The notes under the pieces were generated by a model. It ran no database searches. It saw only the letters and a list, made by a program, of their open reading frames with translations, and was not told where the DNA came from. Both the position numbers and the translations under genes were made by a program. Shown here piece by piece: positions 8,932 to 57,058 of a DNA stretch of 64,000 bases. Origin of the DNA: a virus (Duplodnaviria; Heunggongvirae; Uroviricota; Caudoviricetes); IMG/VR virus record IMGVR_UViG_3300042430_003153; one strand, given 5' to 3'. The stretch's first letter is position 1. Every line of letters begins with the position of its first letter.

Positions 8932-9174
8932 TTATTTTAGAATTTCTGAAATCTTTTCCTCTCTATCTAATTGAAATGTGTCAATTTCAAACATCGGTAA
9001 TCCATCAATTCTTGAAGGACTTAAGTATTTACCATATACTGATTTTCCTTCATATTTATCAGAATTAAATACCATGCCAAACACTACACTATCAATAACT
9101 TTTAACTCTGAAAAATCTAATTGAATTATCTGGTCTTTATGTTCTAACTTTTCTGATTTTATTGTAAATTTCAT
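8932..9174 (-). CDS. hypothetical protein
   Basis: 80 aa. Stop overlaps the start of the topoisomerase gene. Confidence 0.45.
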   Translation of the reverse strand: MKFTIKSEKLEHKDQIIQLDFSELKVIDSVVFGMVFNSDKYEGKSVYGKYLSPSRIDGLPMFEIDTFQLDREEKISEILK

Positions 9175-11015
9175 TTTAACAACTCTGTTTTTCTTAAATC
9201 AGAACTCTTACCAAACCAAATATCCAATGAACCTTTGGACATATCATCTTTAGTGATTAAAGTCATTCTTGGTGAATTGATTATATCTTTGTATTCATCA
9301 TCAACAAGAGCTGCTAAACCTTTTTTATATTTAACTTCCCATTGTTTTAAATCATTCTTAGATTCCCACTCTGACCACTCTGACTGTGAATAAAAGAGAA
9401 CTTTTTTCTTACCTTTTTGTTTTGGGATAGCAACAACAATTGGTGTTTCTACTTTATAAATCATTTTTCTTTCAAACATATCAGGCCAGTATTTGTAAAA
9501 AAAGTTAATCAATAAACCGGCAATTGAGTTACCATCGACATCAGCATCTACATAAAAAAGAACACGACCGTATCTTAAACTTTTAAGTTCAATCTCTTGT
9601 CCAAGTTTTAAACCAATTGACGCCATTAAATTTACTACCTCATCATTTGCAACCAATTTTTGATTAGTCATTTCTGATACATTTACAAATTTTCCTTTAA
9701 GTGCGAAAGCACCCATTGTTTCTGGAGTTCTATATTTTCTGAATGCTGAAATAGCAGAGTCACCTTCGAATAATCCAATTGAACATTTCCATCGGTCTTT
9801 ACCTTTAGCGTCAATTAGCTTTTCAACTTTAATCTTAGAAAGTTTTTTATTTAACTCTCTTTGTAGTTTTGAGTCTTCAGCTGACTTTTTTTGTTGAATC
9901 CAATCTAAAATAGAATTAACAATCTCAGATTTTAATATACTTTGAATAAGTTTATTTGATATTTCAAAAGTTGTTCCGAAATCTTTAATCTCTGTAATTA
10001 ATTTCTCTTTGGTTTGTGATGAGAAGGATGGATTAATTATGGTGGAGTCTAAAAATAAAAACATATGATTCTTTAATTCAGATGGCTTAACATCAACCTT
10101 ATGTTTCTTCATAAAGAACTCTCTTAATTGAGAAACGATTTGATTCATAATATAATCAACGTGTGTTCCACCATCATAAGTTTCTGTAGAGTTAGCAAAA
10201 CTAACTTGTTGAAATCCATTCTCGGAAAGTGAAATACTAACTGACCAAGATTTATCTTTTGAAGTTTCATAAAAATAATCTTTGACATAAAGTTTAACAT
10301 AGTCTTCAAATGTTCCGAAATTCAAAAGTTTATTATTGAAATGTATTTTAAGATGTGTGTTACAAGCAGCCAGGTCATAAACTCTTTTTTCAATCATTTT
10401 GAAATGATTTTGGTCAATATCGCTCAATCCAAACTTTTCAAAGTCTATTAGAAACGAAATTTCTGTATGATTTTTTGATGATTTTGTAATCTTTGGTTGA
10501 GTTCTTTCTCTCATATTATTTGAGAAGCTCTGAACAAATTGTTTTTTACCATCACAAGTTGAAATAGTAAATCTTGTTGAATAGATATTGGTCAATGTAG
10601 AACCAACACCATTAGTTCCTGCCCAACTTCTTGCTTCACTATCATCAAAGTTTGAACCTGCTTTAAGATTAGAAAATATCATTTCTGGAATCCATTCTTT
10701 GTGCTCTGAGTGTTGAACTACTGGAATTCCACCATTATCCCAAATGGTTATAGTATTTTTTTCTCTATCAATAGTTACTTTGATTGTGTTTAACTTTGAA
10801 CCTTTTCTCTTAGATTCATCAACTGAGTTAGTAATGATTTCGTCGAATATTTTTAGAAAACCTGGATTATATGTGGTTTCTTTTAATTCTACAGTATCTT
10901 CATTGATTAACCATTTATTAGATGTATGTGGTTTTATTGAACCGATATACATACCCGGTCTCAATATTACATGCTCAATATCATCTAACTTCTGGAACTT
11001 CTTATCTACGGACAT
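9171..11015 (-). CDS. type II DNA topoisomerase large subunit (GyrB-like ATPase + TOPRIM; T4 gp39+gp60 equivalent)
   Basis: EHVILRPGMYIGS and IFDEIITNSVDE GHKL-ATPase motifs, with a TOPRIM EGDSA motif. Single continuous 614-aa ORF. Confidence 0.9.
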   Translation of the reverse strand: MSVDKKFQKLDDIEHVILRPGMYIGSIKPHTSNKWLINEDTVELKETTYNPGFLKIFDEIITNSVDESKRKGSKLNTIKVTIDREKNTITIWDNGGIPVVQHSEHKEWIPEMIFSNLKAGSNFDDSEARSWAGTNGVGSTLTNIYSTRFTISTCDGKKQFVQSFSNNMRERTQPKITKSSKNHTEISFLIDFEKFGLSDIDQNHFKMIEKRVYDLAACNTHLKIHFNNKLLNFGTFEDYVKLYVKDYFYETSKDKSWSVSISLSENGFQQVSFANSTETYDGGTHVDYIMNQIVSQLREFFMKKHKVDVKPSELKNHMFLFLDSTIINPSFSSQTKEKLITEIKDFGTTFEISNKLIQSILKSEIVNSILDWIQQKKSAEDSKLQRELNKKLSKIKVEKLIDAKGKDRWKCSIGLFEGDSAISAFRKYRTPETMGAFALKGKFVNVSEMTNQKLVANDEVVNLMASIGLKLGQEIELKSLRYGRVLFYVDADVDGNSIAGLLINFFYKYWPDMFERKMIYKVETPIVVAIPKQKGKKKVLFYSQSEWSEWESKNDLKQWEVKYKKGLAALVDDEYKDIINSPRMTLITKDDMSKGSLDIWFGKSSDLRKTELLK

Positions 11016-11063
11016 TGAAATTTACAATTTTTTTAGATGTATATAGTAAAAAGTAAAATTTGT

Positions 11064-11756
11064 TTATTCTGGTATATCTGTGAATCTACTATCTGGCTTG
11101 AGTGGAATAAGTGGATTTACTTCAAATTTTTTATTTATGTAATCTTTTAGTTCATTCTCAATATAGTTTTCAGGAACTTCTTTATCTGGATCCTCTAAAC
11201 TCATTTTAAGAGAAAGTGAGTTTGAAAAACTCTGTATAACTTCAGGTCTAATTGCACTAACTAATTTATCAGATACTACAAAAGCTCTTGTGAATCTATC
11301 TTTAACCGGAATCTCACCTTCAGCTACTTTCATAGACCTGTCAATTAATTGTTTAAGAAAACCTTCATAAGTATCAGATGAGTCCTGTAGTATAGGAGCT
11401 AATATTTTATTAAAAGCTCTTGTAGAGCCAAGTATCATACCTAAAATAGCTGCTATAGGAAAAAACGGAGCTAAAGCCATTGGTATAACTCTATGAAGCG
11501 CTTTTACAATTCCAACTTTTAAGTCAGTTCTTTTCTTTGCAGTTTGAGCATCTTTAAAAAGAGCTAATAACATTCCGAATCTCATTTCGGTTCCTTGTGA
11601 TTTTAAGTAATCAGCCAAATGACCTCTATGTGCATTGTAAAGTTGACGATTGATTTCTTCTTCGTCAGTGATTCCCAATCTTTGTAATTCTGCTTTAAAA
11701 TTATCATCAAACTTCTCTAAAATTAGGAATTGACTATATCTCTTTAATTTACTCAT
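11064..11756 (-). CDS. hypothetical membrane-associated protein with CTS-like N-terminus
   Basis: N-terminus MSKLKRYSQFLILEKF. Internal hydrophobic stretch VIPMALAPFFPIAAILGMILG. Confidence 0.5.
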   Translation of the reverse strand: MSKLKRYSQFLILEKFDDNFKAELQRLGITDEEEINRQLYNAHRGHLADYLKSQGTEMRFGMLLALFKDAQTAKKRTDLKVGIVKALHRVIPMALAPFFPIAAILGMILGSTRAFNKILAPILQDSSDTYEGFLKQLIDRSMKVAEGEIPVKDRFTRAFVVSDKLVSAIRPEVIQSFSNSLSLKMSLEDPDKEVPENYIENELKDYINKKFEVNPLIPLKPDSRFTDIPE

Positions 11757-11876
11757 TATTGTATATATTAAAAACTTAATATTAACTTAATGTAATCATA
11801 ATTAATATATCTATAAAAAACCAGTTAATTTATCTAAATAGTTTATATCACGAAATACTGTGTTTATAAATAAATT

Positions 11877-12611
11877 ATGAAAATTAAAACACTTTTTATT
11901 TCTGACGTTCATTTAGGAACAAAAAAATGTCAAGCTGATAAACTCTTAGAAGTTATAAGAGATTACGAGTTTGAGAAACTAATTATTGTTGGTGACTTTA
12001 TTGACTTAACTTCACTTAAAAGAAAGTTTTATTGGCACCCTGACCACTCAACTGTTATTCAAAAGATACTTAGAGAATCAAGAAAAGGAGTTGAGATTAT
12101 TTATATTTTAGGAAATCATGATTTTTATTTAAGATCTTTAATTGTAGATGAAAACATTAATTTAGGTTCAATACTTATTTGTGATGAGTATTTCTATACA
12201 ACATCAGCAGGTGAAAAAATTTATATCTGTCATGGTGACCAGTTCGACGGATTTATTAGATTACATCCTTTTATTTACTCATTAGGTGACTGGGCTTATG
12301 AGTTAAGTTTTAAGATAAATAAGTGGTATAATAAAATTAGAAGATTATTTGGATTACAATATTGGTCTCTTTCTCAGTTCTTAAAATCAAAAGTTAAAAA
12401 CGCAATCTCATTTATAAATGATTTTAAAATACTTTCAATAAAAACAGTAAAGGAAAAAAACTGCGACTCAATTATGATAGGACATATTCACACACCAGCT
12501 ATTGAAAAAATAGAAAATTTCACTTACTACAATACCGGTGACTTTTGTGAAAGTTGTTCTTTTTTATATGAAGACCTTTCTGGACAAATTAACTTAGTAG
12601 TGATTGATTAG
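11877..12611 (+). CDS. metallophosphoesterase (calcineurin/LpxH-like)
   Basis: ISDVHLG, GDFIDL, GNHD and GHIH metal-binding motifs in canonical order. Confidence 0.7.
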   Translation: MKIKTLFISDVHLGTKKCQADKLLEVIRDYEFEKLIIVGDFIDLTSLKRKFYWHPDHSTVIQKILRESRKGVEIIYILGNHDFYLRSLIVDENINLGSILICDEYFYTTSAGEKIYICHGDQFDGFIRLHPFIYSLGDWAYELSFKINKWYNKIRRLFGLQYWSLSQFLKSKVKNAISFINDFKILSIKTVKEKNCDSIMIGHIHTPAIEKIENFTYYNTGDFCESCSFLYEDLSGQINLVVID

Positions 12612-12646
12612 GAAAAACAAAATAAAGTTTTTACTATATACGAATT

Positions 12647-13990
12647 ATGATGACAGAAAAAAGTATATCAGAGTTCTTATCAGACGAATATAAAGAGTTT
12701 GCAATGTATGTAATTGAAGGTAGAGCAATTCCTTCAGTCATTGATGGTTTCAAACCAACCCAAAGAAAAATCATTCATATTGCAAATCAAATCTGGAGAA
12801 CCGGAAATGAAAAAACCTTAAAAGTGTTTCAGTTAAGTGGTAAAGTCGCTTCAGATTGTTTCTATCACCACGGTGATATGTCACTTTCAAATGCTATAAT
12901 AACTATGGCTCAAAGATTTAAAAACAATGCTTCTCTTTTAGAAGAAGAAGGTCAGTTTGGTTCACTAAGATCACCTCAGGCGGGAGCTCCTCGATATATT
13001 GGAACAAAATTATCTGAAAACTTTAGATTAATTTATAAAGATTTTGACTTGTTGAAATTCAAAGAAGAAGAAGGTGAATCAATTGAACCTCATTATTTTT
13101 TACCGATTGTTCCAACAGTTTTACTTAATGGTTCATCAGGAATCGCTGTAGGTTTCGCTTCCAACATTTTAAATAGAGACATAAAGTCAATTATTGATGC
13201 TTGTTTAAAAGTTCTTAATGGTAAACAACCAGGTGAAATTAAACCATCATTAAATGGATTTACAGGAGATTATATTCAAGACACTGAAAATAATAAAAGA
13301 TGGATTATTCGTGGTAAATTTGTTAGAGCAAATACTTCTACTGTTAAGATTAGTGAGTTACCACCTTCAATGACTTATGAAAAATATGAAGACATTTTAG
13401 ATAAGTTAGTTGATGATAAAATTATTGTTTCTTATGATGATAATTGTAAAGATAATATTGATTATACTATTAAATTCACAAGATCTGATTTAGATAAATT
13501 AGATGATGAGAAATTGATTAAGTTATTGAAACTTGAAGAATCATCAACTGAAATATTTTCAACATTAGATGAAAGGGGTAAGTTAATGATATTTGATTAC
13601 ACTCAAGATATAATCAATTACTTTGTTAATTTCAGATTAAATTATTACCATAAAAGAAAAGAGCATCTACTTGAAAAGATGAACAGAGAGTTAAAAATAC
13701 TTTCTAACAGAGGTCGATTCATTAAAGCCATTTTAGATGAAAAGTTAAAAGTTAATAATGTTCCTAAAATTGAAATCATCAAAGGTGTTGAAGAAATGAA
13801 CTTAGATATGATAGATGGTTCATATGACTATCTCTTAAGAATGCCTATCTACTCGTTAACAAAAGAAGTTTTTGATAAACTAAAAGCTGATTTTATTGAA
13901 AAGAAAGCTGAAATTCAAAAGATGGAGCAAACTGATCCTAAAGATATGTATGTTGATGATTTGAATGAATTAAAAAAGAAATTCAAATAA
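12647..13990 (+). CDS. type II DNA topoisomerase medium subunit (GyrA-like; T4 gp52 equivalent)
   Basis: AIPSVIDGFKPTQRKI (GyrA N-terminal signature) and APRYIGTKL (active-site Tyr region). 447 aa. Confidence 0.85.
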   Translation: MMTEKSISEFLSDEYKEFAMYVIEGRAIPSVIDGFKPTQRKIIHIANQIWRTGNEKTLKVFQLSGKVASDCFYHHGDMSLSNAIITMAQRFKNNASLLEEEGQFGSLRSPQAGAPRYIGTKLSENFRLIYKDFDLLKFKEEEGESIEPHYFLPIVPTVLLNGSSGIAVGFASNILNRDIKSIIDACLKVLNGKQPGEIKPSLNGFTGDYIQDTENNKRWIIRGKFVRANTSTVKISELPPSMTYEKYEDILDKLVDDKIIVSYDDNCKDNIDYTIKFTRSDLDKLDDEKLIKLLKLEESSTEIFSTLDERGKLMIFDYTQDIINYFVNFRLNYYHKRKEHLLEKMNRELKILSNRGRFIKAILDEKLKVNNVPKIEIIKGVEEMNLDMIDGSYDYLLRMPIYSLTKEVFDKLKADFIEKKAEIQKMEQTDPKDMYVDDLNELKKKFK

Positions 13991-14017: not shown

Positions 14018-14734
14018 ATGTCTAATAAAAAAGTTTTATCTTACGAAGAGTTTGTAAACGAAGAAATCAATCTTAAAAAAGCTTTAGCTGGAGCCGCTTT
14101 AGGTGCTGGTCTTATGTTTGGTAATCCAACTGATGCAAAAGCACAACAACCAGTTCAAACTGAAATATCACAAACATCAAATGCTGATTACTCAGAAGTT
14201 TTCGAAGTAGATAGTCTTCTTAAGAAATCAGATATTAAAACTAAGATTACCAGTCAAATTTATAATAGTCTTTCTGGAATTAGAATCCTTACAAATACTA
14301 CTGATAAAATAACTTGTTCTGTTACAATGAATGCTAAACCTGATAACTCAAATGGTGTTTGTTATGCAACTATGGATGTCTCATTTAAAGATGGTAAGTA
14401 TAAAGTTGAATTTTCAAATATTTACTTTGTTCATGTAGGAACTCAACCACAAACAGCTGGTCAACAGCTAGGACAGAATTTGAATAGACAATTAACAGGA
14501 GTGGCAACTAATGCGTTAACTGGAACTATCAGAAATCCTATATTAAGAAACATGACTCAACAAGCTGTAAATACTACAGTTAGAAATGTTCAAAATTCTA
14601 ACCAGACTAATTCTAATATTAATTACAAAAACTCGAATAATCAATCATTCGTAAATTCTGTTAATGCTGAAATAAGTAAAATTACAACCACTTTTCAATC
14701 AGCTTTCTCGACCAATACAGATAATGATTGGTGA
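14018..14734 (+). CDS. hypothetical protein with CTS-like N-terminus, hydrophobic segment and N/Q/T-rich tail
   Basis: N-terminus MSNKKVLSYEEFVNEE, then ALAGAALGAGLMFG, then a low-complexity N/Q/T-rich C-terminus. Confidence 0.5.
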   Translation: MSNKKVLSYEEFVNEEINLKKALAGAALGAGLMFGNPTDAKAQQPVQTEISQTSNADYSEVFEVDSLLKKSDIKTKITSQIYNSLSGIRILTNTTDKITCSVTMNAKPDNSNGVCYATMDVSFKDGKYKVEFSNIYFVHVGTQPQTAGQQLGQNLNRQLTGVATNALTGTIRNPILRNMTQQAVNTTVRNVQNSNQTNSNINYKNSNNQSFVNSVNAEISKITTTFQSAFSTNTDNDW

Positions 14735-14781
14735 TTTTTAATTTTTTTCATAAAAATAACTTATTTCTTAAATCTTATTAA

Positions 14782-14789
14782 TATATTTG
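14782..14789 (+). promoter_or_regulatory. Bacteroidetes-type -7 promoter element TATATTTG
   Basis: Matches TAnnTTTG, 22 nt upstream of the ATG at 14812. Confidence 0.4.
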
Positions 14790-14811
14790 CTGTAAAATAT
14801 AATATAATATA

Positions 14812-15180
14812 ATGGTGTTAAAAGAAATAAAAGAATTTGTTGTTTCACAGATGAAAGAATCTGATTGGGAATCCGATCATTCAAGAGATTTAATAAAATA
14901 CAACTCAAAACATATAGTAATTAGAATTCCCAATACTGGTAAAATGAACTTTAATATAAAAGTCCCGGGTGGATATTCTAATGATGATATCAATATTAAA
15001 AGAAAAGAATTAGGATTAAATCTTATACACTTTTGGATTCTAATGATATATGTAAAAAACTCTTCTAAAAATGTAGAAAAGAGAAAAAGAGAAAAAGAAA
15101 TCACTTATCAATGGAATAGATTTTTAGAAAGAAATAAAGATTTAAGAAGAAATAATAAGTTAAATAAAATACTAGACTAA
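14812..15180 (+). CDS. hypothetical protein
   Basis: 122 aa ORF, basic C-terminus. Stop overlaps the next start (TAATG). Confidence 0.45.
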   Translation: MVLKEIKEFVVSQMKESDWESDHSRDLIKYNSKHIVIRIPNTGKMNFNIKVPGGYSNDDINIKRKELGLNLIHFWILMIYVKNSSKNVEKRKREKEITYQWNRFLERNKDLRRNNKLNKILD

Positions 15181-16298
15181 TGAAACAAGAACTATTTAAT
15201 CTTATTGAACAAAAATCAACAGGTGCAAAACCGCTGTATCTTGTTATACGAGGTTCACATGCCTATGGAACTAATATTGAAACTTCCGATACTGATTATG
15301 CGGGAGTTTTTATACAATCATTAGATGATATCTTAGGTAATAATTACAAAGAACAAATTAATGATGATAAGAATGATACTGTAATTTATGAAGTTCGTAG
15401 ATTTCTTCAACTAATTGCTAGTAACAATCCAACTGTATTAGAATTACTCAACACACCAGAAGATTGTGTTATTTATAAAGACCCTGCTTTTGATATTATC
15501 TTAGAAAACCGTGAGAAGTTTATAACTAAAGTTTGTGCTAAATCTTTTGGTGGATACGCTAAACAACAAATCAGTAAAGCAAAAGGTCAGGATAAAAAAC
15601 AAAATTGGGAAAAAGATAAAGTCACTCGTAAAACTCCTTTAGATTTCTGTTATATTCACCGTGGTGAAAAATCTATTTCACTTGTGAATTTTATGGAAGA
15701 AAAAGGTATGGATCAAAGATTTTGTGGTTTATCTAATGTTCCACATAGTAGAGATACTTATGCTCTTTTCTATGACTTCAAAGAAGAAGAGACTAATGGC
15801 GAAATTAAAAATTTAGGATTTAAGGGAATTGCTTTTGAAGATTCTAATCAAGTTAGACTATCATCTATTCCGGTAGAAACACCTAAAAATTATTTTATTG
15901 GACATGTTTCTTATAACAAAGATGGTTACTCACAACATTGTAAAGATTATCTTTCTTACCAAGAGTGGTTAGAAAATCGAAACTTAGCACGTTGGGTGGA
16001 TGTTAAATCTCATGGTCAAAAAATTGACGGTAAGAATATGATGCATTGTAAGCGTCTAATGGAAATGGCAAAAGAGATTGGTGAAGGAAAAGGTATTATT
16101 GTAAGAAGACCAAATGCTGAAGAACTAATTGCTATTCGTAGAGGTGAAGTTGATTTACAAACTTTAATCGATTCGGTTGAGAAGGAAATTAAAGAGGTTG
16201 ATAGAATCTTTGAAGAGTCAAATCTTCCTGAAAAAGTTGATGAAAAATTCATCAATAAAATGATTGTTGAAATAAGAAAACAAATATATAAACTATGA
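15180..16298 (+). CDS. Pol-beta superfamily nucleotidyltransferase (COG3541/PF10127-like)
   Basis: LVIRGSHAYGTNIETSDTDYAGVF matches the hG[GS]x9-13D[hD] nucleotidyltransferase signature of this family. Confidence 0.55.
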   Translation: MKQELFNLIEQKSTGAKPLYLVIRGSHAYGTNIETSDTDYAGVFIQSLDDILGNNYKEQINDDKNDTVIYEVRRFLQLIASNNPTVLELLNTPEDCVIYKDPAFDIILENREKFITKVCAKSFGGYAKQQISKAKGQDKKQNWEKDKVTRKTPLDFCYIHRGEKSISLVNFMEEKGMDQRFCGLSNVPHSRDTYALFYDFKEEETNGEIKNLGFKGIAFEDSNQVRLSSIPVETPKNYFIGHVSYNKDGYSQHCKDYLSYQEWLENRNLARWVDVKSHGQKIDGKNMMHCKRLMEMAKEIGEGKGIIVRRPNAEELIAIRRGEVDLQTLIDSVEKEIKEVDRIFEESNLPEKVDEKFINKMIVEIRKQIYKL

Positions 16299-16933
16299 TG
16301 ATTGTTGCATTAATTTTCACTTTTGTTTTTGGTGTTTCTCTTGGAGGTTATCTTCAGAAAAGATTATTTGAGAGAGCACTTAGAATTGAAAAAGAAAAAG
16401 CTGATGAATTGAAAAAAAATCAATTTATTGAACTCAAGAAAAAAGTTAGAAACGGTAAATCAAAATTTAAAACTCGTGTAAATGATATGGTTTATCTTTC
16501 TGTGTCTCTTGAAGAGCATGGTGACGTGGACTTAATTTATCTATTAGATAAAGATGATATAGCTATTTTTCAAGAAACCAAATGTCTTTATACATCTGAT
16601 GGAATTGATAAGAGTTTAGTTGATGAAATAATATCAACGATATACAAAATTTACGGTAAAAAAATAAATGACGTAGTTGAAATTTTAGGATTTGTATTTT
16701 ATAGAGAGGAATTTGAAAATTCTTTTAATATTAAAGTTGAAGATTTGAAAAAGTCTAATCTTTTTTCAAATTTATCAAATGATATGGGTGAGATAGAAAA
16801 AATAAAAAGTGAAAATAAAAAAAGGTTTAATATAGATGAGATATTAGACAAAATTTCATCTTTTGGAATCGCATCTCTTACTATTGAAGAAAGATTGTTT
16901 TTAGATAATTATTCAAATGAAAAGAGAGATTAA
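16295..16933 (+). CDS. hypothetical protein, N-terminal TM helix; C-terminal IDEILDKI..GIxSLTxxExxFLD motif
   Basis: N-terminus MMIVALIFTFVFGVSLGGYL is hydrophobic. C-terminal ~25 aa shared with ORF 24591..25157. Confidence 0.5.
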   Translation: MMIVALIFTFVFGVSLGGYLQKRLFERALRIEKEKADELKKNQFIELKKKVRNGKSKFKTRVNDMVYLSVSLEEHGDVDLIYLLDKDDIAIFQETKCLYTSDGIDKSLVDEIISTIYKIYGKKINDVVEILGFVFYREEFENSFNIKVEDLKKSNLFSNLSNDMGEIEKIKSENKKRFNIDEILDKISSFGIASLTIEERLFLDNYSNEKRD

Positions 16934-17246
16934 CGTTAGTCCTTGGAAACACATCACCACGTCTCACAAAATTGACCATCATAGTTTAGATGAAATATTC
17001 ACCATTCTAATTGAAAAAGATGGTGAATATTATTTCATTGTTGAAGAATGTCAAAAAGTTTTTGATATATCACAAATGCCAAATTATATTAAAGAAGATT
17101 GGATAAAATACAATAAAAAATCCTTATCTTTGTCATTACTTAATGAACAGATTAAAAAACTCACAAATGATTTAGATCAATTTGAAGATGAGTTGAGTTT
17201 ATTAAAGTCATTAAGAAGAGATTTAATAATTAAAGGAATAATATGA
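16917..17246 (+). CDS. hypothetical protein
   Basis: 109 aa, predicted helical C-terminus. Confidence 0.45.
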   Translation: MKREINVSPWKHITTSHKIDHHSLDEIFTILIEKDGEYYFIVEECQKVFDISQMPNYIKEDWIKYNKKSLSLSLLNEQIKKLTNDLDQFEDELSLLKSLRRDLIIKGII

Positions 17247-17437
17247 AAGATTTATTTAAAAGAAAGCCTCGTAAAATAGAAGATGATTTTGCTCCTGTTG
17301 GAACAAAAGATTGTGAAATGAAGTGTGAACGTCGAGTTATAATGATGTCAAACGGTCCGGTTATTGTTTGTGAAGGTTGTAAAAGAATAGTAATGGATAA
17401 TAGAGATGAAGGCGGTAATTCAGATAGTTCTAATTAA
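17243..17437 (+). CDS. small zinc-ribbon protein
   Basis: 64 aa with CEMKC...CEGC pattern (two CxxC pairs). Confidence 0.4.
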   Translation: MKDLFKRKPRKIEDDFAPVGTKDCEMKCERRVIMMSNGPVIVCEGCKRIVMDNRDEGGNSDSSN

Positions 17438-17963
17438 TTTTATTGTTTACTCCGTTACATATTTAATGGAGATTAATGGATTATATCTAAATAATCTATT
17501 AGCTCTTTTTCCTTTAAATTCTGAACACTTTTCCATACATCAATTAGTTACACATATTTTTGCACATGCTGACTTTATGCATGTGATGTCTAATATGTTG
17601 ATACTTCTAATAGTGGGTCCTGATGTCGAGAGAATCTTAGGTAAGAAAGAATTTTGGAAGTATTTTATACTTTCTGGTATCTTTAGTTCTGGATTATATT
17701 TCCTAGCAAGTTCACATCCTATAATTGGAGCATCAGGTGCTGTTTTTTCGGTTGCATCAGCATCAATTATAATCAATTGGAAATTACAAAAAGAATCGTG
17801 GTCAATCAGATTGAGAAATACATTTTTTATTTTTTTAATAGCCTCTGAACTATTAGATGTTATTCTTAATAAAAATGATGATGTTGGTCATTTGGCTCAT
17901 GTTCTTGGGGCATCTTTTGGAATAATATACTTTTTTATTTTATCAAAAAAAAAGATACAGTAG
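17406..17963 (+). CDS. rhomboid-family intramembrane serine protease
   Basis: HxxxN TM2 motif (HIFAHADFMHVMSNM), catalytic GASGAV (GxSG) and TM6 AHVLGASFG (catalytic His). Several hydrophobic helices. Start may be the downstream ATG. Confidence 0.8.
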   Translation: MKAVIQIVLINFIVYSVTYLMEINGLYLNNLLALFPLNSEHFSIHQLVTHIFAHADFMHVMSNMLILLIVGPDVERILGKKEFWKYFILSGIFSSGLYFLASSHPIIGASGAVFSVASASIIINWKLQKESWSIRLRNTFFIFLIASELLDVILNKNDDVGHLAHVLGASFGIIYFFILSKKKIQ

Positions 17964-18004
17964 TAAATAATCTAATATATAATCAGTAAAAAAAATTATT
18001 ATAT

Positions 18005-19093
18005 ATGAAGAAATTATTATTATTTTTATTTCTTGCGGTTCAATTTATTAGTCTATCTCAGACACAATACCGTAATGACTTTGTTGAAACCTTCTCAACT
18101 GATTGGTCTGGAGAATGGTTCATACCAGCTGCTACCACTGGATACTTTAACAACGCATCTGTTAGCACAACATTAAGTGCTGCTATTTACGGTAGTGGTA
18201 ACTCTTCGATTGAACAAGACTGGTATTCATTTCCTAATATCACATTAAATCCATCAAATACATATAAGTTTAAATTCAGATTAGCTTCTTATGCTTTTAG
18301 TAACTCGACTGCTGCAACAAGAGGTTTGGATGCTGCTGATTACATAACTGTTCAAGTTTCAACTAACGGTGGTGTGACTTATGTTAATGAATTACGAATA
18401 ACTGGAAATAGTAACTCTCTTTGGAATTACAGTGCTACTGGTTCTATTACACACTTTGCAAATGGATCTTTCACTAACTTAGCTGCTCCTGCCGGTGACG
18501 TTTATCAAGCACCCAGTGGGACAAACCCTCAAACTTTTTTAAGTAATGGTCCTACTTCTATAACACTTGAATTAGCTCCAGGAATTGGTCAAGTAGCAAT
18601 TGATATCTATTGTAGAATTAATTCGGCTGGTGAAGAGTGGTGGATGGATAACTTTGAGTTGATAGAAACAGTTCCTGTATCTTTACCGGTTGAGTTAACA
18701 AAATTTGAAGCAAGAAGTTCTACCTATTATAATGTTATAAATTGGACAACAGTTTCAGAGTATAACTCTTTACATTATGATTTAGAAATGAGTTTAGATG
18801 GTGAAAATTGGAAATTAATCTCAAATCAAAAAGCGGCTGGATTTTCAAATGAAGAAATAAACTATTCTTTTACTGATTATAATCAAAATCAGTTGACTTA
18901 TTACAGACTTATTCAATATGATAATGATGGTAAATCAAAGGGGTATGGGCCAATAACAGCATTCAAGAAAAAATCTATTAAGAAAGTTGAAAAGTATGTA
19001 AATACAATTGGCCAAGAAATAAATCCTGATAATTACAGTGGTGTTTATTTTGAAATCTACGAAGATGGAACTTCTAATAGATTTTTTAAATAA
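18005..19093 (+). CDS. secreted protein: signal peptide + choice-of-anchor-J/MAM-like domain + T9SS C-terminal sorting domain
   Basis: Signal peptide MKKLLLFLFLAVQFISLSQ. EEWWMDNFELIE motif. C-terminal ~35 aa (VNTIGQEI...SGVYFEIYEDG...RFFK) resemble Por/T9SS CTDs. Confidence 0.5.
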   Translation: MKKLLLFLFLAVQFISLSQTQYRNDFVETFSTDWSGEWFIPAATTGYFNNASVSTTLSAAIYGSGNSSIEQDWYSFPNITLNPSNTYKFKFRLASYAFSNSTAATRGLDAADYITVQVSTNGGVTYVNELRITGNSNSLWNYSATGSITHFANGSFTNLAAPAGDVYQAPSGTNPQTFLSNGPTSITLELAPGIGQVAIDIYCRINSAGEEWWMDNFELIETVPVSLPVELTKFEARSSTYYNVINWTTVSEYNSLHYDLEMSLDGENWKLISNQKAAGFSNEEINYSFTDYNQNQLTYYRLIQYDNDGKSKGYGPITAFKKKSIKKVEKYVNTIGQEINPDNYSGVYFEIYEDGTSNRFFK

Positions 19094-19120
19094 TAATTTG
19101 TATTATCTTTATTTTTTCCA

Positions 19121-19128
19121 TATATTTG
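19121..19128 (+). promoter_or_regulatory. Bacteroidetes-type -7 promoter element TATATTTG
   Basis: Motif ends 4 nt before the ATG at 19133. Confidence 0.4.
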
Positions 19129-19132
19129 CAGT

Positions 19133-19492
19133 ATGGATATAAATAGAATTAACGATATGGTAGATAGAAAAGTAATCCAATCCTTTCAGGAGGGATTTTC
19201 TATCGGTGCTATTCAATCTGATTTAATGGTTAGAATGAAAAACTTCATGAAGACTATTGAAAAAGATGATAGTTCTAATTACCAGGAGTTATATAATTCT
19301 GAATTTAGTCAAATCTCAAATATCCGTCTTAGATATGGTATTACTTACATCAAACAATGTGAAAAAAGAATTAAAGATTTGAGTTGGATTTTTGATAAGA
19401 AAAAAAGATTTCCAGGTTATACCAATTCTCAAATTTTTAAGATGATACAATTCAAAGAAAAATTGTTAAAAAAAGAAGATTTAGTCGCTTAA
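19133..19492 (+). CDS. hypothetical protein
   Basis: 119 aa ORF. Confidence 0.45.
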   Translation: MDINRINDMVDRKVIQSFQEGFSIGAIQSDLMVRMKNFMKTIEKDDSSNYQELYNSEFSQISNIRLRYGITYIKQCEKRIKDLSWIFDKKKRFPGYTNSQIFKMIQFKEKLLKKEDLVA

Positions 19493-19519
19493 TTCCTTTG
19501 CTGTTATTGATATTCTCCT

Positions 19520-19527
19520 TATATTTG
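19520..19527 (+). promoter_or_regulatory. Bacteroidetes-type -7 promoter element within conserved 15-mer TCTCCTTATATTTGT
   Basis: Identical 15-mer also at 27267..27281. Motif ends 4 nt before the ATG at 19532. Confidence 0.45.
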
Positions 19528-19531
19528 TATT

Positions 19532-19753
19532 ATGAAAATCGATAAAGGAACACTCTGGAACATTCTTGAAAAATACGACACTAAAGAGTATGAAGCTCTT
19601 TGTGATGGGTTATCTAATATTATCAGAGAAAAAGAAGACATCAACGATTTTCTAAACATCTATACTTACTATGATAAGATTGACAATTCTGATAGAAAGT
19701 TAATCGAAGAGCAGGTTGGAAATAAAATCACCGGAGCGCTTTTCTCAATTTAG
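19532..19753 (+). CDS. hypothetical protein
   Basis: 73 aa ORF. Confidence 0.4.
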   Translation: MKIDKGTLWNILEKYDTKEYEALCDGLSNIIREKEDINDFLNIYTYYDKIDNSDRKLIEEQVGNKITGALFSI

Positions 19754-19787
19754 ATTTATATTACTTTTGATGGGTAATATATAACCT

Positions 19788-20660
19788 ATGAAACCACTAC
19801 TAACTTTATTATTCTCCTTCTTTATTTCATTTTTTTATTGTCAAGTATCACAAGACACGGTAAGTCTTTCCCCACAAGAGTTATTTGAATTTAACTCAAG
19901 ATGGAACAATTTAGGTGTATCACAAATTTATGTAGACTTTTCAAAAGATGTTTTATCGACTTCCGACTTATCATTTGGAGTTGTTGGTAAAAGAGTATCT
20001 ACTACACTTAATCTATCATATAATATCCAGTCTAAAAATGGCAAATGGAGTAATATGATATTAAGTTCAATTAATCCACTCTGGAAATATTATGGAATTG
20101 GTTATGGATTATCTATGACTACTGATAAAAGAAATACTACACTACAAACTATGTTGTCAAGTGATTTTAATTTTCAAAATAATATAAATATATCAATAAT
20201 AGATGTCTATAAAACTAAAAAGTTAGGTAAATTTGGATGGAGTTTAACTGCATCAAAAACATACTGGGGTGAATGGGAAGGCCCCTGGGAAGGACAATAC
20301 ATAGTAGATTCACTTGGAAATTGGGTTTCTAATGTTTACCCTATGAATCCACCATCTAATCAATTAACAACGAGAGCTATGGTGATGTATACTTACTCAA
20401 TTAAAACAAAAATTGTTGATATATCACCCCAGATTTTTGTAACTGGTGATATTTACAAAGTTTTTAAAAGTCCTGAATTAAATATTAGTTATTTTGACGA
20501 TTTTAATTTAGATATTTATTATGGTGTAAATATGAATTGGAAAATCACTAAGAAGTTTGTTTTAAATACCACAATAAGATTTAACAATACTTATGATAAG
20601 GTTGATTTAGGATTTAAAAAGAGTAATCCTATTCTATTTATGATAGGAACAAGTTTCTAA
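19788..20660 (+). CDS. secreted protein, possible outer-membrane beta-barrel
   Basis: Signal peptide MKPLLTLLFSFFISFFYCQ. Alternating amphipathic strands. C-terminal aromatic residue (..IGTSF). Confidence 0.5.
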   Translation: MKPLLTLLFSFFISFFYCQVSQDTVSLSPQELFEFNSRWNNLGVSQIYVDFSKDVLSTSDLSFGVVGKRVSTTLNLSYNIQSKNGKWSNMILSSINPLWKYYGIGYGLSMTTDKRNTTLQTMLSSDFNFQNNINISIIDVYKTKKLGKFGWSLTASKTYWGEWEGPWEGQYIVDSLGNWVSNVYPMNPPSNQLTTRAMVMYTYSIKTKIVDISPQIFVTGDIYKVFKSPELNISYFDDFNLDIYYGVNMNWKITKKFVLNTTIRFNNTYDKVDLGFKKSNPILFMIGTSF

Positions 20661-21349
20661 GACTTTGATATTTTAACTTTTATACCAACAGTCAATTTGT
20701 GAATCATACGTGTTTCACTATCACTTCTATAATTAATCAAATCCTGTATAGTTAAATTTACTTTATTCTTTGGAAATAAGACTAATTGATTGCTAGCGTT
20801 TATTATTTGATTATTGAAATCAGTCATACTGGGTTGAAAATAAACTTCGCTTATAAACTGAATCTTTTCTGTTGTCCATTTAATTCTTGTTCTTAATGAA
20901 TGTCTGAAATAATCTTTTTCTATTCCGTTTGCGAAAACTGTTTTTTGATACAAACCAGCATAGGATACTGATATTTTGAATTTATCTTTTTGTTCTTTTT
21001 TAATACCGCCTCCGATACCAATAAAGTTATCGTTATCAATTCCTCTAATAAAAGAGTAGTTGTATGTATGTGTTACGAAGGCGTCAAATTTAGAATTATT
21101 ATATCTAATATTTTGTCTACTTAAATATTCATTATTTGTAAGTTGTGGTGAATATTGAATTATATAAGATGGGTTATAATCAAATCCAAATTTTTTATAA
21201 TCCAACGAGTTAATACCACCTAAGGTAAGAGTGAGTTGATTACCTGTTTTAGTTGTTCCATAAACACCGGTTAAGGTATTATCAAAAGACCATTTTAACT
21301 GACCGAGACTAAGCAAAGGCAATAAGCAAAATAAAAGTAAAAGTTTCAT
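20657..21349 (-). CDS. secreted protein, possible outer-membrane beta-barrel
   Basis: Signal peptide MKLLLLFCLLPLLSLGQ. Gly/Tyr/Asn-rich beta-strand-like repeats. Confidence 0.5.
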   Translation of the reverse strand: MKLLLLFCLLPLLSLGQLKWSFDNTLTGVYGTTKTGNQLTLTLGGINSLDYKKFGFDYNPSYIIQYSPQLTNNEYLSRQNIRYNNSKFDAFVTHTYNYSFIRGIDNDNFIGIGGGIKKEQKDKFKISVSYAGLYQKTVFANGIEKDYFRHSLRTRIKWTTEKIQFISEVYFQPSMTDFNNQIINASNQLVLFPKNKVNLTIQDLINYRSDSETRMIHKLTVGIKVKISKS

Positions 21350-24590: not shown

Positions 24591-25157
24591 ATGTATATCA
24601 TTAACACAAACCTAGAAGAAGTATTGAAAGAATTTCAATTCGTAGAAAGTTGGATGGATACCATCTGTCAAAATATTCTACATAAAGATAGAGAGGATTG
24701 TAAGACTACTTTATTTTATAATTATGGATACTTTGTTCCGAAAGGAAAAGGTGCAAATCCAGAACAGTATGACATGATGTTTAGTGATAGACTCGAATAT
24801 GAGTTATCAAAAGTAAGAGTGAATGTTACCATCAAAATTGATGAATTTATGATGACTAATCGACTTAAAAGAGGTATGATGCCGGAACTGGTTAAGTCTA
24901 TGGTAACTGAAATCACAAAATATAAAATGAGCATTGAGTGTGAGTTTCATCAAAATCAAGAAGTAAAAGATTCAATTCCAGATTTTGATGAAAGTGTAGT
25001 ATCTATCGAAGTTATTAGAAAAGAAATTGGAGAAGATAAAATCGAAGAAGAGTATTTTGATATTGATGATATTTTAGATAAGATTGCTAGAAGTGGAATA
25101 GACTCACTTACTGAAGGTGAGAAAGATTTTCTTGATAAAAAAAGTAAAGAAATGTAA
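24591..25157 (+). CDS. hypothetical protein with C-terminal DIDDILDKI..GIDSLTEGEKDFLD motif
   Basis: C-terminal ~25 aa shared with ORF 16295..16933. Confidence 0.5.
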   Translation: MYIINTNLEEVLKEFQFVESWMDTICQNILHKDREDCKTTLFYNYGYFVPKGKGANPEQYDMMFSDRLEYELSKVRVNVTIKIDEFMMTNRLKRGMMPELVKSMVTEITKYKMSIECEFHQNQEVKDSIPDFDESVVSIEVIRKEIGEDKIEEEYFDIDDILDKIARSGIDSLTEGEKDFLDKKSKEM

Positions 25158-25957
25158 TGGATATAAACCAGATATACAGAGGTGACTCATTAGAGTTATT
25201 AAAACAATTACCAGACAACTCAGTTGATTTGGTGATAACGTCACCTCCGTATGCTGATTTAAAGGTATACATCGATAATCCAGGAATTTTAGCTGATAAC
25301 TATGTAGAGTGGTTTCTACCAATATGTAATGAAATCTGTCGAGTTATTAAACCGACAGGTTCTTTTATTTTAAATATCAATGATAAAGTCGAAGGTGGAT
25401 TTAGACATCCTTATGTTTTTGATTTGATATCAGAAATTCATAAAAGAACTGAATTGAAAATGTTTGAAAGACTTTTCTGGAATAAAATGAAAGGTCTTCC
25501 TAATAGAAGTAGATTTGGAGATAGAGTTGAATATCTATTCTGGTTTGCTAAAGAAAAGGGTTTCAAATTCAACATTGATGAAATGAGAACTGAGTATTCA
25601 GAGAAGTCAATTCAGAGAATGAAAAAACCTCTTAAAAAAAGATTTGCTAGAACAGAAAATGATTCTGATGAATATAAAGACTGGTCACCAAATCCACTTG
25701 GTGCTCTTCCAACAACATTAGTAAATATTTCATCTGAGTCTAAAAAGATTGCTGATAATCACGTTGCTGTTTATCCAGTTGAGTTAGTTGATTACTTTAT
25801 TAAAGGTTCAACTTTAGAAGGTGATTTAGTTTTAGATCCGTTTATGGGAACTGGAACAACTGGAGTTTCTGCTAAAAAATTAGGTAGAAACTTTATAGGA
25901 TTTGAAAAACAATTAGAATATATCGAAATTGCTAATAGGAGGATTGAACAATGTTAA
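25157..25957 (+). CDS. DNA N6-adenine/N4-cytosine methyltransferase, beta class (PF01555-like)
   Basis: DLVITSPPY (motif IV) near the N-terminus and LDPFMGTGTTG (motif I) near the C-terminus. Confidence 0.8.
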   Translation: MDINQIYRGDSLELLKQLPDNSVDLVITSPPYADLKVYIDNPGILADNYVEWFLPICNEICRVIKPTGSFILNINDKVEGGFRHPYVFDLISEIHKRTELKMFERLFWNKMKGLPNRSRFGDRVEYLFWFAKEKGFKFNIDEMRTEYSEKSIQRMKKPLKKRFARTENDSDEYKDWSPNPLGALPTTLVNISSESKKIADNHVAVYPVELVDYFIKGSTLEGDLVLDPFMGTGTTGVSAKKLGRNFIGFEKQLEYIEIANRRIEQC

Positions 25958-30724: not shown

Positions 30725-32185
30725 ATGATAATTAAGAACATTCACGAAAAATTACTCAACGGTATTCAAACAATGTTGATTGACACTAAAATCAACTTGC
30801 CTTACTACGGTGAGTTCAACCTACACGTCAGTTTCCACGAGCAAGATTCAATTGGAACTTGTGCTGTAAATGTTACCTCAAAAGGTATGAACTTTTACTA
30901 CTCTCCAAAGTTTTTGGAAAATATGTCACAAAAAGAAGTTAACTTTATTACTCTTCACGAGGACTTTCACCTTCTTTTTAACCACCCTCGTAGAACAATC
31001 ACTGGTCAGTATGACCACAAATTGTCTAACATCGCTCAAGATATGATTATCAATCACGTTATCTGGGAAGATATTCCACACGCTTTTGTAGAAATTCCAA
31101 AGTCTCCAGATGGTAAGAATATGGCTCTGTTTGTTCCAAAAGAATATACAGGGAAACTTATCTTTGAAGAGCTTTATGAGTGGTTGAAAGATGAGAAAGA
31201 AAAATGGCAAAAAGAGCAAAAACAGAACTCTGAGTGTCAGTCTTGTAAAGGATCTGGTAAAAAAGACCAATCACAGAAAGGTGACCAACCTGGTGAAGGA
31301 CAACAACCTGGTGAAGGTAAAGGTGAGAAAAAAGATGGTGAAGGAGAAGGTCAGGGAGAGTCTTGTCCAGATTGTCAGGGAACTGGTAACGAAGGAGGTA
31401 ATGACTCTAGTGGAAAACCATCTTATGGGCCTTACGGTAAAAACCCATCAAAAGATGGTGATTCATTAGACACTTGGTCTAAAGAGCAAATCTTCCAAGA
31501 TATGGAAAACGGTAACGGTGAGTATCTTGACAAACACATCGGTGATGATGTTCCTGAGGAACTGAGAGATGCGATGGTGAAAGATGTGATGGAAAGACTT
31601 GCGGCTCGTGGACTATCAGCGGGTAATGTTGAGCAAACACTTAACAAACTTCGTAAGAAACGTAAAGATTATCTTCGTGAAATCAAAAGAGCGGTTTCTA
31701 ATATGATTTTTGGAACTGTTAAAGAAAGAACTATCGTTAAACCTAATCGTAAGGGTATCTCTGGTTTGAAAGGAGCTCGTAAAGTGAAAACTAAGATTAA
31801 TGTTGGTCTTGATACTTCTGGTTCAATGGGTGGTCAGGGAACGTTTGAAAGAGTTCTCTCATATGTTTACAGAAACGATATTGAAATCAATTTCATGGAA
31901 AGTGATACTCAAGTAAACTGGGTAGAGAACATCAAAAGTAAAAGACAACTTGAAAGTATTCCGATTAAAGGATTAGGTGGAACCTGTTTACAACCAATGA
32001 TTGACTACATTGTAGAACATCACAACGATTGTAATAGTGTCTTATTGACAGATGGTTACACCGATACTCTTGATTTTTCAAAAGTAAGAGGTAGAGTTTT
32101 GATTATCTCGGTTGGTGTTAAGTGTCCAATTTCAAGAACCAATGGTAAGGTGAAACAAATTACCATTGAGGGTAATGAAAAGTAA
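30725..32185 (+). CDS. metallopeptidase-domain + VWA-domain protein (DUF2201/PF13203-PF09967-like) with Gly-rich linker containing two CxxCxGxG zinc knuckles
   Basis: LHEDFHLLFNH (HExxH), C-terminal MIDAS-like DTSGSMGG, and linker CQSCKGSG / CPDCQGTG. Confidence 0.7.
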   Translation: MIIKNIHEKLLNGIQTMLIDTKINLPYYGEFNLHVSFHEQDSIGTCAVNVTSKGMNFYYSPKFLENMSQKEVNFITLHEDFHLLFNHPRRTITGQYDHKLSNIAQDMIINHVIWEDIPHAFVEIPKSPDGKNMALFVPKEYTGKLIFEELYEWLKDEKEKWQKEQKQNSECQSCKGSGKKDQSQKGDQPGEGQQPGEGKGEKKDGEGEGQGESCPDCQGTGNEGGNDSSGKPSYGPYGKNPSKDGDSLDTWSKEQIFQDMENGNGEYLDKHIGDDVPEELRDAMVKDVMERLAARGLSAGNVEQTLNKLRKKRKDYLREIKRAVSNMIFGTVKERTIVKPNRKGISGLKGARKVKTKINVGLDTSGSMGGQGTFERVLSYVYRNDIEINFMESDTQVNWVENIKSKRQLESIPIKGLGGTCLQPMIDYIVEHHNDCNSVLLTDGYTDTLDFSKVRGRVLIISVGVKCPISRTNGKVKQITIEGNEK

Positions 32186-41616: not shown

Positions 41617-41645
41617 GAGTTAGACTAAATCTAACTCTTTTTTCT
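41617..41645. terminator. bidirectional terminator hairpin
   Basis: AGAGTTAGACTAAATCTAACTCT flanked by an A-run and a T-run, between convergent genes. Confidence 0.55.
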
Positions 41646-54137: not shown

Positions 54138-54326
54138 ATGATAGAAATGAAGTATTTTAAAGTATTCTTGATGTGGACAGCACTTATTGCTACAGCCACA
54201 TATTACGGCGAGTATGTCGTAAGTAGAGAAGTAAACGGGTTCATCCAACTTGTAGGTTTCGTTGGAATGGTTGGACTCTTAGCGTTAGTAGTAAACGAAA
54301 CCATTAAAGTTATAAATAAAAAATAA
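54138..54326 (+). CDS. small membrane protein (2 predicted TM helices)
   Basis: 62 aa: FLMWTALIATATYY ... GFVGMVGLLALVV. Confidence 0.4.
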   Translation: MIEMKYFKVFLMWTALIATATYYGEYVVSREVNGFIQLVGFVGMVGLLALVVNETIKVINKK

Positions 54327-54332
54327 AGAAAA

Positions 54333-55283: not shown

Positions 55284-55291
55284 TATGAAAA

Positions 55292-55313
55292 TCGGGTGGT
55301 GATAATTCACCAC
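55292..55313 (+). terminator. hairpin terminator
   Basis: GGGTGGTGATAATTCACCACCC followed by a weak T-rich tract. Confidence 0.5.
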
Positions 55314-55329
55314 CCTTATTAAATTAAAA

Positions 55330-55742: not shown

Positions 55743-55751
55743 AAAAAACAT

Positions 55752-56175: not shown

Positions 56176-56302
56176 TTATGGAAAATTGGAATCCTAATGA
56201 CTGGCAAGGTCGCCGTAAAGACCAATATGAATACTCAGCAAAAGTTGTATTTTATTGCCTAATTCTTTTTGCTGTAATTACCCTAACATCAATTTTCTTC
56301 CT

Positions 56303-57022: not shown

Positions 57023-57058
57023 CAAATAGGTAATCTTTGGAAAGCCTTATAAACAAAG

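Follow-up and report, generated by a model that had tools for sequence, protein, structure and literature searches.

A compact, probably active rhomboid protease in a huge phage of Bacteroidota, with genomic ties to DUF6576 proteins

The viral record IMGVR_UViG_3300042430_003153 of IMG/VR, a DNA stretch of 64,000 nucleotides (nt) referred to here in its full length as the window, encodes a 185-aa rhomboid intramembrane serine protease at positions 17406..17963 of the plus strand. This is most probably a genuine, host-derived rhomboid carried by a huge phage, a new example of a known family that, judging from its conserved residues and predicted structure, is probably active. The reading favoured here, with a probability of roughly 0.55 for the whole, is that the protein is a minimal six-helix active rhomboid of host origin that supplements or redirects the rhomboid/DUF6576 pathway of the host; confidence in the biological role taken by itself is much lower, this being the weakest step. 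Bacterial rhomboid biology is thin, comprising the maturation of TatA, quality control of MgtE and orphan subunits, and rhombosortase. To this the phage gene adds a compact, apparently active enzyme that is kept in the largest known phages and tied to the DUF6576 module. As the evidence now stands, it is another host-derived accessory gene of a huge phage; its DUF6576 connection deserves follow-up more than any other aspect, and the gene may provide a handle on the short/long rhomboid pair of Bacteroidota and on the way huge phages manage the host envelope.

The open reading frame (ORF) opens with ATG and occupies exactly the coordinates assigned to it in an earlier note on this DNA, which had put its product at ~185 aa. 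Conservation of the first transmembrane (TM) helix speaks for this start codon, the N-terminal 'MKxVxQIILIN' of the helix being kept in homologues with N11 invariant. Comparison with the Pfam family Rhomboid (PF01694; MEROPS S54), the check that the earlier note had proposed, places the protein in the family with 100.9 bits (gathering cutoff 22.6 bits; E=9.6e-29) across profile positions 4-142 of 143; with a match over nearly the whole profile, the rhomboid motifs are not a chance resemblance. The three motifs quoted in that note are all found in the protein:

17406..17963, plus strand: rhomboid, minimal six-TM core, with H59/N63 (TM2), G108-A-S110-G (TM4), H162, H165 and G168xxxG172 (TM6)
Residues 54-63: TM2 motif HADFMHVMSN, with H59xxxN63
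Residues 108-113: catalytic serine motif GASGAV, with S110 at nt 17733-17735
Residues 164-172: TM6 motif AHVLGASFG, with H165 at nt 17898-17900

A phmmer search of the sequences in the Protein Data Bank (PDB) matched GlpG of Haemophilus influenzae (2NR9). In this alignment GASGAV faces GLSGVV, HLAHVLG faces NAAHISG and the HxxxN motifs are likewise paired, so that Ser110 and His165 occupy the catalytic positions. An alignment of 31 homologues (26-92% identity) shows no variation at S110, H165, H59, N63, G108, H162 and G168, and the same residues are invariant when 11 viral and 113 cellular relatives are placed on the hidden Markov model (HMM) of the family. AlphaFold2, run on the 31-homologue alignment, gave a model with a pLDDT of 90.6 and a pTM of 0.89 and TM helices at residues 2-23, 57-78, 80-99, 110-123, 132-154 and 159-184, the same six segments that stand out as hydrophobic in the hydropathy profile. 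The top 27 Foldseek matches of the model in the PDB are all GlpG (TM-score 0.66-0.77), followed by iRhom; the matches to iRhom2 are weak (E about 4e-3). The serine and histidine lie in the equivalents of TM4 and TM6 and six TM helices are predicted, as expected if the earlier note had read the family correctly. Lysine and arginine are concentrated in the loops TM2-3 and TM4-5 and at the C-terminus, and the first loop (L1) is acidic; this distribution fits an N-in/C-in topology, with the active site predicted to face the periplasm. The ratio of nonsynonymous to synonymous substitution (dN/dS) is 0.15 relative to the 92%-identical copy in contig L006, indicating purifying selection. The enzyme is thus probably catalytically active.

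Assignment to better-known branches of the family was tried and rejected. The protein is not a GlpG orthologue, scoring 38.7 bits against a cutoff of 250 (NCBIfam TIGR04239) and 32.4 bits against 335 (NF008155), and a GlpG-type N-terminal cytoplasmic domain is absent, the phage protein opening directly with TM1. Nor is it a rhombosortase (TIGR03902, 35.1 bits; cutoff 84). In the window, a single protein of >=100 aa has a C-terminal TM segment and a basic tail (41631-42521), and it gave no GlyGly-CTERM match. An inactive rhomboid-like protein of the iRhom or Derlin type was dismissed on the ground that the catalytic serine and histidine are both kept and invariant.

The window belongs to a huge 'Mahaphage'-type phage of Bacteroidota. 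It has a GC content of about 29%, and codes for nucleases, methylases, a tRNA nucleotidyltransferase, two tRNAs and a split topoisomerase II of the T4 type (phrog_543, E=8.6e-188; phrog_551, E=1.1e-150), the halves of which are:

9171-11015, minus strand: topoisomerase II large subunit, T4-type, split
12647-13990, plus strand: topoisomerase II gp52-like subunit, T4-type, split

The large subunit is 80% identical to that of LR745206 (634,780 bp) and 78% identical to that of LR756502 (642,428 bp), curated and circularised genomes of 634 and 642 kb from the 'Mahaphage' clade with predicted Bacteroidetes hosts (Al-Shayeb et al. 2020, PMC7162821). Synteny between the window and these two complete genomes extends over more than 15 kb; both contain a rhomboid at the syntenic position, after genes for orf109 and a zinc-ribbon protein, and LR745206 also has RlaP and a DUF6576 protein upstream. 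The string of topoisomerase II, RlaP, DUF6576 protein, orf109, zinc ribbon and rhomboid recurs in related IMG/VR and metagenome contigs of 59-176 kb. Together, the topoisomerase II identity and the synteny with complete huge-phage genomes support the earlier view of the rhomboid as phage-encoded. The label 'tailed phage' rests on kinship to published genomes, since no virion genes were found in the 64-kb window; a megablast of positions 15000-21000 against phage records gave no match.

It is extremely unlikely that the window is instead a cellular (Bacteroidota) contig or a chimeric assembly. Such an origin would suit a family of cellular descent, the many window genes without phage hallmark annotation and the grouping of one 'MAG' contig (L030) with the phage copies, but it conflicts with the synteny to two complete curated phage genomes, with the phage PHROG matches of the topoisomerase II (E=1e-150 to 1e-188) and with the occurrence of the cassette in IMG/VR contigs of up to 176 kb. 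Moreover, representatives of 185,579 species of cellular genomes contain no rhomboid more than 36% identical to the phage copy. In L030 itself (JBCCGK010000126.1, 'MAG: Bacteroidota bacterium', 30 kb) the gene after the rhomboid encodes a DUF6576 protein of 361 aa that is no rhomboid, a phage-like arrangement; the contig could be a prophage or a phage fragment that was binned wrongly. In LR756504.1, a huge phage of 636 kb, positions 465956-466528 give a weak tblastn match (24.9% identity, 98% coverage, E=0.4) that may represent a third, more divergent huge-phage rhomboid.

The earlier note described rhomboids as rare or unreported in tailed phages, of which the first half stands: a search of 50,697 phage records with the window's rhomboid as query gave 2 matches at E<=1e-5. 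The second half does not. The window's rhomboid has a match in PHROG 16931 ('unknown function'; E=1.2e-11), the names 'Rhomboid family', 'glpG-like' and 'rhombosortase' are given to phage proteins in BFVD/UniProt, where giant-virus rhomboids are found as well, and auto-annotated 'Rhomboid family protein' entries in huge phages occur in three GenBank files supplementary to Al-Shayeb et al. 2020; the text of that paper does not mention rhomboids (PMC7162821). A cellular short rhomboid used as query retrieved 19 phage records at E<=0.01, including several doubtful (cellular or fragmentary) ones. A literature search on phage and viral rhomboids found no functional study of any phage rhomboid, and one on a link between rhomboids and type IX secretion (T9SS) found nothing relevant.

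The most informative feature of the locus, a link to DUF6576, was missed by the earlier note, correct as it was on the identity of the rhomboid. The rhomboid belongs to an overlapping, co-directional gene string that begins with RlaP, whose stop overlaps the start of the DUF6576 gene, and a second DUF6576-tailed protein is encoded further downstream:

15180..16298, plus strand: RlaP-type nucleotidyltransferase (Pfam PF10127, E=1e-19; phrog_388, E=2.7e-57)
16295..16933, plus strand: DUF6576 anchor protein, 212 aa, single-pass membrane protein, two genes upstream of the rhomboid
16917..17246, plus strand: orf109, conserved cytoplasmic protein of 109 aa, overlapping the upstream gene by 17 nt and the downstream gene at ATGA
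17243..17437, plus strand: zinc-ribbon protein, 64 aa, Cx3C...Cx2C, its last 32 nt overlapping the rhomboid start
18005..19093, plus strand: exported protein, 362 aa, with a signal peptide (N-terminal hydrophobic signal), immediately downstream of the rhomboid
24591..25157, plus strand: second DUF6576-tailed protein, 188 aa, soluble (PF20216, E=2.8e-8, 34.2 bits)

The anchor protein has an N-terminal TM segment (residues 2-20) in which G13 and G17 are invariant, followed by a K/R-rich helix next to the membrane, a globular domain in the cytoplasm, a disordered flexible linker and a C-terminal two-helix DUF6576 (Pfam PF20216, 34.5 bits; cutoff 27.3); the K/R-rich continuation after the TM segment implies an N-out/C-in orientation. 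The second protein is recognized by a purpose-built DUF6576 HMM (E=1.8e-15), has no TM segment (maximum 15-residue hydropathy 0.73) and has orthologues in L006, L096/L097 and L098. In both phage proteins the DUF6576 tail contains ...IDxILDKISxxGIxSLTxxEkxFLd...

The best cellular matches of the phage rhomboid, at <=35-36% identity, are mostly from Bacteroidota and chiefly from Saprospiraceae. Across the 80 best loci (L013-L092), a short rhomboid (187-244 aa) is directly followed by a long one (278-505 aa, mostly about 280-320) that ends in DUF6576 in 33 cases, and a single rhomboid-DUF6576 fusion is present in 26; another 19 contain a rhomboid alone, at least some of these at contig ends, one has a rhomboid followed by a non-rhomboid DUF6576 protein, and in one the second of two rhomboids is truncated where the locus ends. 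In Saprospiraceae and Flavobacteriales the gene order is mutL, short rhomboid, long rhomboid-DUF6576, Exo_endo_phos (e.g. L013 2142-6526 and L078 2006-6721), and the catalytic residues are kept in both cellular paralogues. E-values of the phage-family HMM are about 1e-45 to 1e-56 for the short paralogues and about 1e-17 to 1e-31 for the long ones beside them, the short paralogue scoring much better (roughly 1e-50 against 1e-26). The combination of rhomboid and DUF6576 extends beyond Bacteroidota to Gemmatimonadota, Zixibacteria, Ignavibacteria and others, and in the distant viral contig L011 a rhomboid is directly followed by a 180-aa DUF6576 ORF. A DUF6576 profile search of metagenomes returned mainly fragments of 44-102 aa, from which the fraction fused to rhomboids is unreadable. 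Both of the stand-alone mini-DUF6576 ORFs that were checked (2/2) lie at a rhomboid locus, one directly after a called rhomboid gene and the other upstream of Exo_endo_phos, where no rhomboid is called.

By the argument from gene fusion and neighbourhood, DUF6576 would be a cytoplasmic module that works with rhomboids. In sequence the phage enzyme resembles the short paralogue, and its linked DUF6576 partner is a non-rhomboid protein, the linkage in phages not being strict; the phage has moved the module onto non-rhomboid proteins, one membrane-anchored and one soluble. A literature search found no paper mentioning DUF6576, and the two-rhomboid short/long system of Bacteroidota appears to be uncharacterised.

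In the mechanism proposed here, an ancestor of the >600 kb Mahaphage-type clade of Bacteroidota phages would have captured a 'short' rhomboid from a host. During infection the protein would enter the cytoplasmic membrane of the host in such a way that its N- and C-termini both lie on the cytoplasmic side, and its Ser110-His165 dyad and H59/N63 oxyanion residues would open to the periplasmic leaflet; there it would cut TM segments of bitopic membrane proteins from the periplasmic side. It may in this way supplement or redirect host-type rhomboid/DUF6576 processing or quality control of membrane proteins at the time when the phage loads the envelope with exported and membrane proteins of its own, and the phage DUF6576-tailed proteins, both the membrane-anchored and the soluble one, could be partners or adaptors of that pathway. 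The envelope-loading step is supported by the genes downstream of the rhomboid, which encode a signal-peptide protein related to T9SS cargo and two proteins resembling outer-membrane proteins. A more specific version, which is doubtful, would have DUF6576 as the cytoplasmic docking module of a two-component rhomboid system of Bacteroidota and allied phyla, with huge phages hijacking it by bringing a short rhomboid together with unrelated DUF6576-grafted proteins, adaptors or decoys that re-target the intramembrane proteolysis of both host and phage during infection. If true, no earlier viral strategy is known that reprograms regulated intramembrane proteolysis.

In L001, L004 and L007 the rhomboid is 46-51% identical to that of the window, while topoisomerase A is 87-93% and orf109 81-91% identical; the rhomboid evolves much faster than its neighbours, and it is an accessory gene in the clade. 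It is situated in a variable island, the slot between the zinc-ribbon gene and orf119. This slot is empty in L096, contains the rhomboid alone in L006, in the window, L001, L004 and L007 combines the rhomboid with at least one exported relative of T9SS cargo, and is occupied by an S8 peptidase in the opposite orientation in L094. A single acquisition is likely on grounds of synteny, and in a rough neighbour-joining tree without support values the syntenic phage copies form one clade, joined by the 'MAG' contig L030.

Several observations weigh against a host-derived enzyme working with DUF6576. In L096/L097 the DUF6576 protein, orf109 and the zinc ribbon are followed after 40 nt by an orf119 homologue, with no rhomboid; L094 keeps the same three genes, and L093 keeps the DUF6576 protein, again without a rhomboid. 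The DUF6576 proteins of L094 and L095 are identical, and only L095 has a rhomboid. The reverse is seen in LR756502 and L008, where orf109 and the rhomboid are present (in LR756502 with the zinc ribbon as well) and the cassette has no DUF6576 gene. The rhomboid-DUF6576 linkage is therefore not obligate in phages, and with the rhomboid at the edge of a variable island the adjacency may in part be accidental. The tree behind a single acquisition is an unbootstrapped one, and the LR745206 copy is 45% identical to a Saprospiraceae rhomboid (over 71% of the query) versus about 30-34% to the window's copy. Finally, the 'WR' motif of L1 is replaced by H45-Q46, with Q46 invariant in the phage family as represented in the 31-homologue alignment. 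In the L1 of cellular short relatives the motif reads WQ, YQ or FQ, with Q in 50/54; the missing 'WR' is a trait of the whole subfamily and no argument against rhomboid membership.

The altered motif, together with the dispensability of the gene in close relatives, would also suit an inert passenger or a non-catalytic scaffold (pseudoprotease). This is highly improbable, since the catalytic and oxyanion residues are invariant across sequences at 26-50% identity, dN/dS is 0.15 and a GlpG-like fold is predicted with high confidence.

The compact gene string invites a different account, in which the rhomboid is a dedicated maturase that cuts one particular bitopic phage protein and thereby activates or releases it. 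One candidate substrate is the DUF6576 anchor: the overlapping co-directional string from the DUF6576 protein to the rhomboid is kept in at least seven lineages, and the anchor, with its single N-terminal TM segment, invariant G13 and G17 and cytoplasmic body, recalls the AarA/TatA pair. However, it is essentially devoid of a periplasmic N-terminal extension, and it persists with identical sequence in phages that have no rhomboid. A P4/P1/P2' recognition motif (hydrophobic/small/hydrophobic) can be traced in the window's anchor as M2, A5 and I7; it was rejected as evidence because A5 is not conserved in homologues, and the M2/A5/I7 pattern as a whole is likewise not conserved. The other candidate is ORF 41631-42521 (minus strand), a predicted lipoprotein of 296 aa (signal ...LFSC) with the type-I topology of classical rhomboid substrates; it lies 24 kb away, and NCBIfam gives it no match to GlyGly-CTERM or another sorting signal. 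The C-terminal TM segment of this protein, 'IIIPIFIYFW', contains a proline, is preceded by 'VGG' and is followed by the polybasic tail NRKKKKERKKS, an arrangement that recalls C-terminal sorting signals. On balance a dedicated maturase is unlikely.

Fast evolution also fits a weapon directed at the host, a rhomboid that would cleave inner-membrane proteins of the host such as receptors or transporters, defence sensors or anti-sigma factors and thereby block superinfection, disarm defence or rewire the envelope. A patchy accessory distribution and a divergence of 46-51% identity next to core genes at 87-93% are what host-interaction genes typically show, the surroundings of the gene are a variable island of exported proteins, and membrane and surface proteins of huge phages may change susceptibility to other phages (Al-Shayeb et al., PMC7162821). 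Against this, the PADLOC defence models gave no matches on the cassette, which thus shows no known defence or anti-defence family, and a dN/dS of 0.15 is ordinary purifying selection with no arms-race signature. A host-directed weapon is accordingly rated as rather improbable.

The roles suggested in the earlier note, namely action on a holin or antiholin, on a defence sensor or on a packaged CTS protein, find no support in the context of the gene, which is a DNA-metabolism region at the edge of an island of exported proteins, with no lysis or virion module. Lysis timing deserves separate mention: the substrates of rhomboids are membrane proteins with a single TM segment, holins and antiholins are themselves small proteins of the membrane, and cleavage of a holin, antiholin or spanin could trigger or delay lysis. 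L093, which has no rhomboid, carries in the same island, on the other strand, an endolysin-like gene (PG_binding_1 + Glyco_hydro_19) four genes downstream of its DUF6576 gene. Yet no endolysin, holin or spanin was detected beside the rhomboid gene in the window, L001, L004, L006 or L007, the neighbourhood is one of DNA and RNA metabolism, and phages of the clade exist without a rhomboid, all of which makes a role in lysis very unlikely. None of these accounts is preferred to a host-derived enzyme that supplements or redirects the rhomboid/DUF6576 pathway.

Of the genes around the rhomboid, RlaP is syntenic in L001, L004, L006, L007, L094, L095 and L098. The product of orf109, without a significant family match in Pfam, is 81-91% identical in L001, L004, L006 and L007 (dN/dS 0.08-0.15), and its gene adjoins the rhomboid in L008, L098 and L099. 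The small zinc-ribbon ORF whose overlap with the rhomboid start had been remarked on before shares 32 nt with it; its four cysteines (C24, C28, C43, C46) are invariant in 9 homologues, as suits a zinc ribbon, and the protein is 80-95% identical in the closer contigs L006, L001, L004 and L007, is kept where the rhomboid is absent, and has no Pfam, PHROG or NCBIfam match. The orf109/zinc-ribbon pair (16917-17437) is far more conserved than the rhomboid or the DUF6576 protein (80-95%, dN/dS 0.08-0.20). Scans of 14500-19800 found sigma-70 promoters at 28 versus a shuffled expectation of 33.1, with a model that does not cover Bacteroidota promoters, and terminators at 1 versus 0.9.

Downstream, 17964-21349 forms an island of envelope proteins whose content differs among close relatives. 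The product of 18005..19093 is 32% identical to residues 584-838 of a 908-aa L001 protein with GBD_T9SS_assoc, GEVED and Por_Secre_tail domains; L006 lacks the gene, and in other relatives it is replaced or enlarged. The island also encodes a 290-aa signal-peptide protein that ends in Phe and resembles outer-membrane proteins, and, on the opposite strand, a 230-aa signal-peptide protein that is DUF481-like (E=0.002, below the Pfam cutoff). Participation of the rhomboid in T9SS processing was rejected as unsupported: T9SS cargo carries a beta-sandwich C-terminal domain, cleaved by PorU, and not a TM anchor (PMC4804311, PMC8545088), and the cargo gene is absent in the closest relative, L006.

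Elsewhere in the window the following features were identified:

25157-25957: N6/N4 DNA methylase
30725-32185: DUF2201 metallopeptidase/VWA-like protein
39613-40785: tRNA nucleotidyltransferase (PolyA_pol head domain; phrog_2244)
42580-43845: UvrC-like endonuclease with GIY-YIG and RNase H domains
56939-57133: tRNA-Leu(TAA) and tRNA-Arg(TCT)

The two tRNAs and the tRNA nucleotidyltransferase are translation-support content typical of huge phages. The two topoisomerase II halves (9171-13990) are divergently oriented and enclose a 230-aa ORF and a calcineurin-like phosphoesterase, an arrangement kept in related huge-phage contigs. A cluster of ORFs at 54138-56306 (62, 316, 71, 91 and 42 aa), each with one or two strongly hydrophobic segments and none annotated, may encode phage membrane proteins.

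Among characterised rhomboids, GlpG (Escherichia coli and H. influenzae; PDB 2NR9, 2IC8, 2XOW) shares with the phage protein a six-TM core that superposes at a TM-score of 0.71-0.77, the GxSG serine atop TM4, the AHxxGxxxG histidine in TM6, the HxxxN motif in TM2 and an aromatic residue four positions after the serine (F114 in the phage, Y205 in GlpG), and the 185 aa of the phage protein come close to the 192-196 aa of the H. influenzae enzyme. It differs in that identity is only 18-20%, in the N-terminal cytoplasmic domain that the phage protein lacks, in the change from WR to HQ and in not being phage-encoded. Other viral rhomboids (PHROG 16931; A0A6J5NSS0, A0A8S5Q3G3 and A0A8S5TE03; those of Yasminevirus and Aureococcus anophagefferens virus) have the rhomboid fold in common with it, and the phage ones are of similar size (about 155-210 aa) but only 15-28% identical to the window's copy. 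Rhombosortase, which acts on GlyGly-CTERM proteins, offers the parallel of a rhomboid-family enzyme dedicated to exported proteins, the phage gene adjoining genes for such proteins, and the best structural match of the phage rhomboid in BFVD is a phage protein named 'rhombosortase'; it differs in that TIGR03902 scores below its cutoff and no GlyGly-CTERM protein was detected in the window.

AarA of Providencia stuartii is a bacterial rhomboid that processes TatA, a protein of N-out/C-in topology with an N-terminal TM helix, an arrangement also predicted for the phage DUF6576 anchor. AarA, an enzyme of seven TM helices, removes an 8-residue N-terminal extension from TatA, whereas the phage anchor has no such extension and the positions of the recognition motif are not conserved. 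The closest cellular kin are the short rhomboids of Bacteroidota and the wider FCB group (30-36% identity), which are similar in length (187-244 aa), share the [W/Y/H]Q-x2-T-[H/Y]-x-F-x-H and GASG motifs and have a comparable genomic tie to a DUF6576 membrane protein. In the cellular pair, however, the carrier of DUF6576 is a full second rhomboid, whereas the phage carrier is a single-pass protein whose cytoplasmic domain is unrelated; the phage order is reversed, with the DUF6576 protein upstream and two small genes in between, and the phage copies form a fast-evolving clade of their own.

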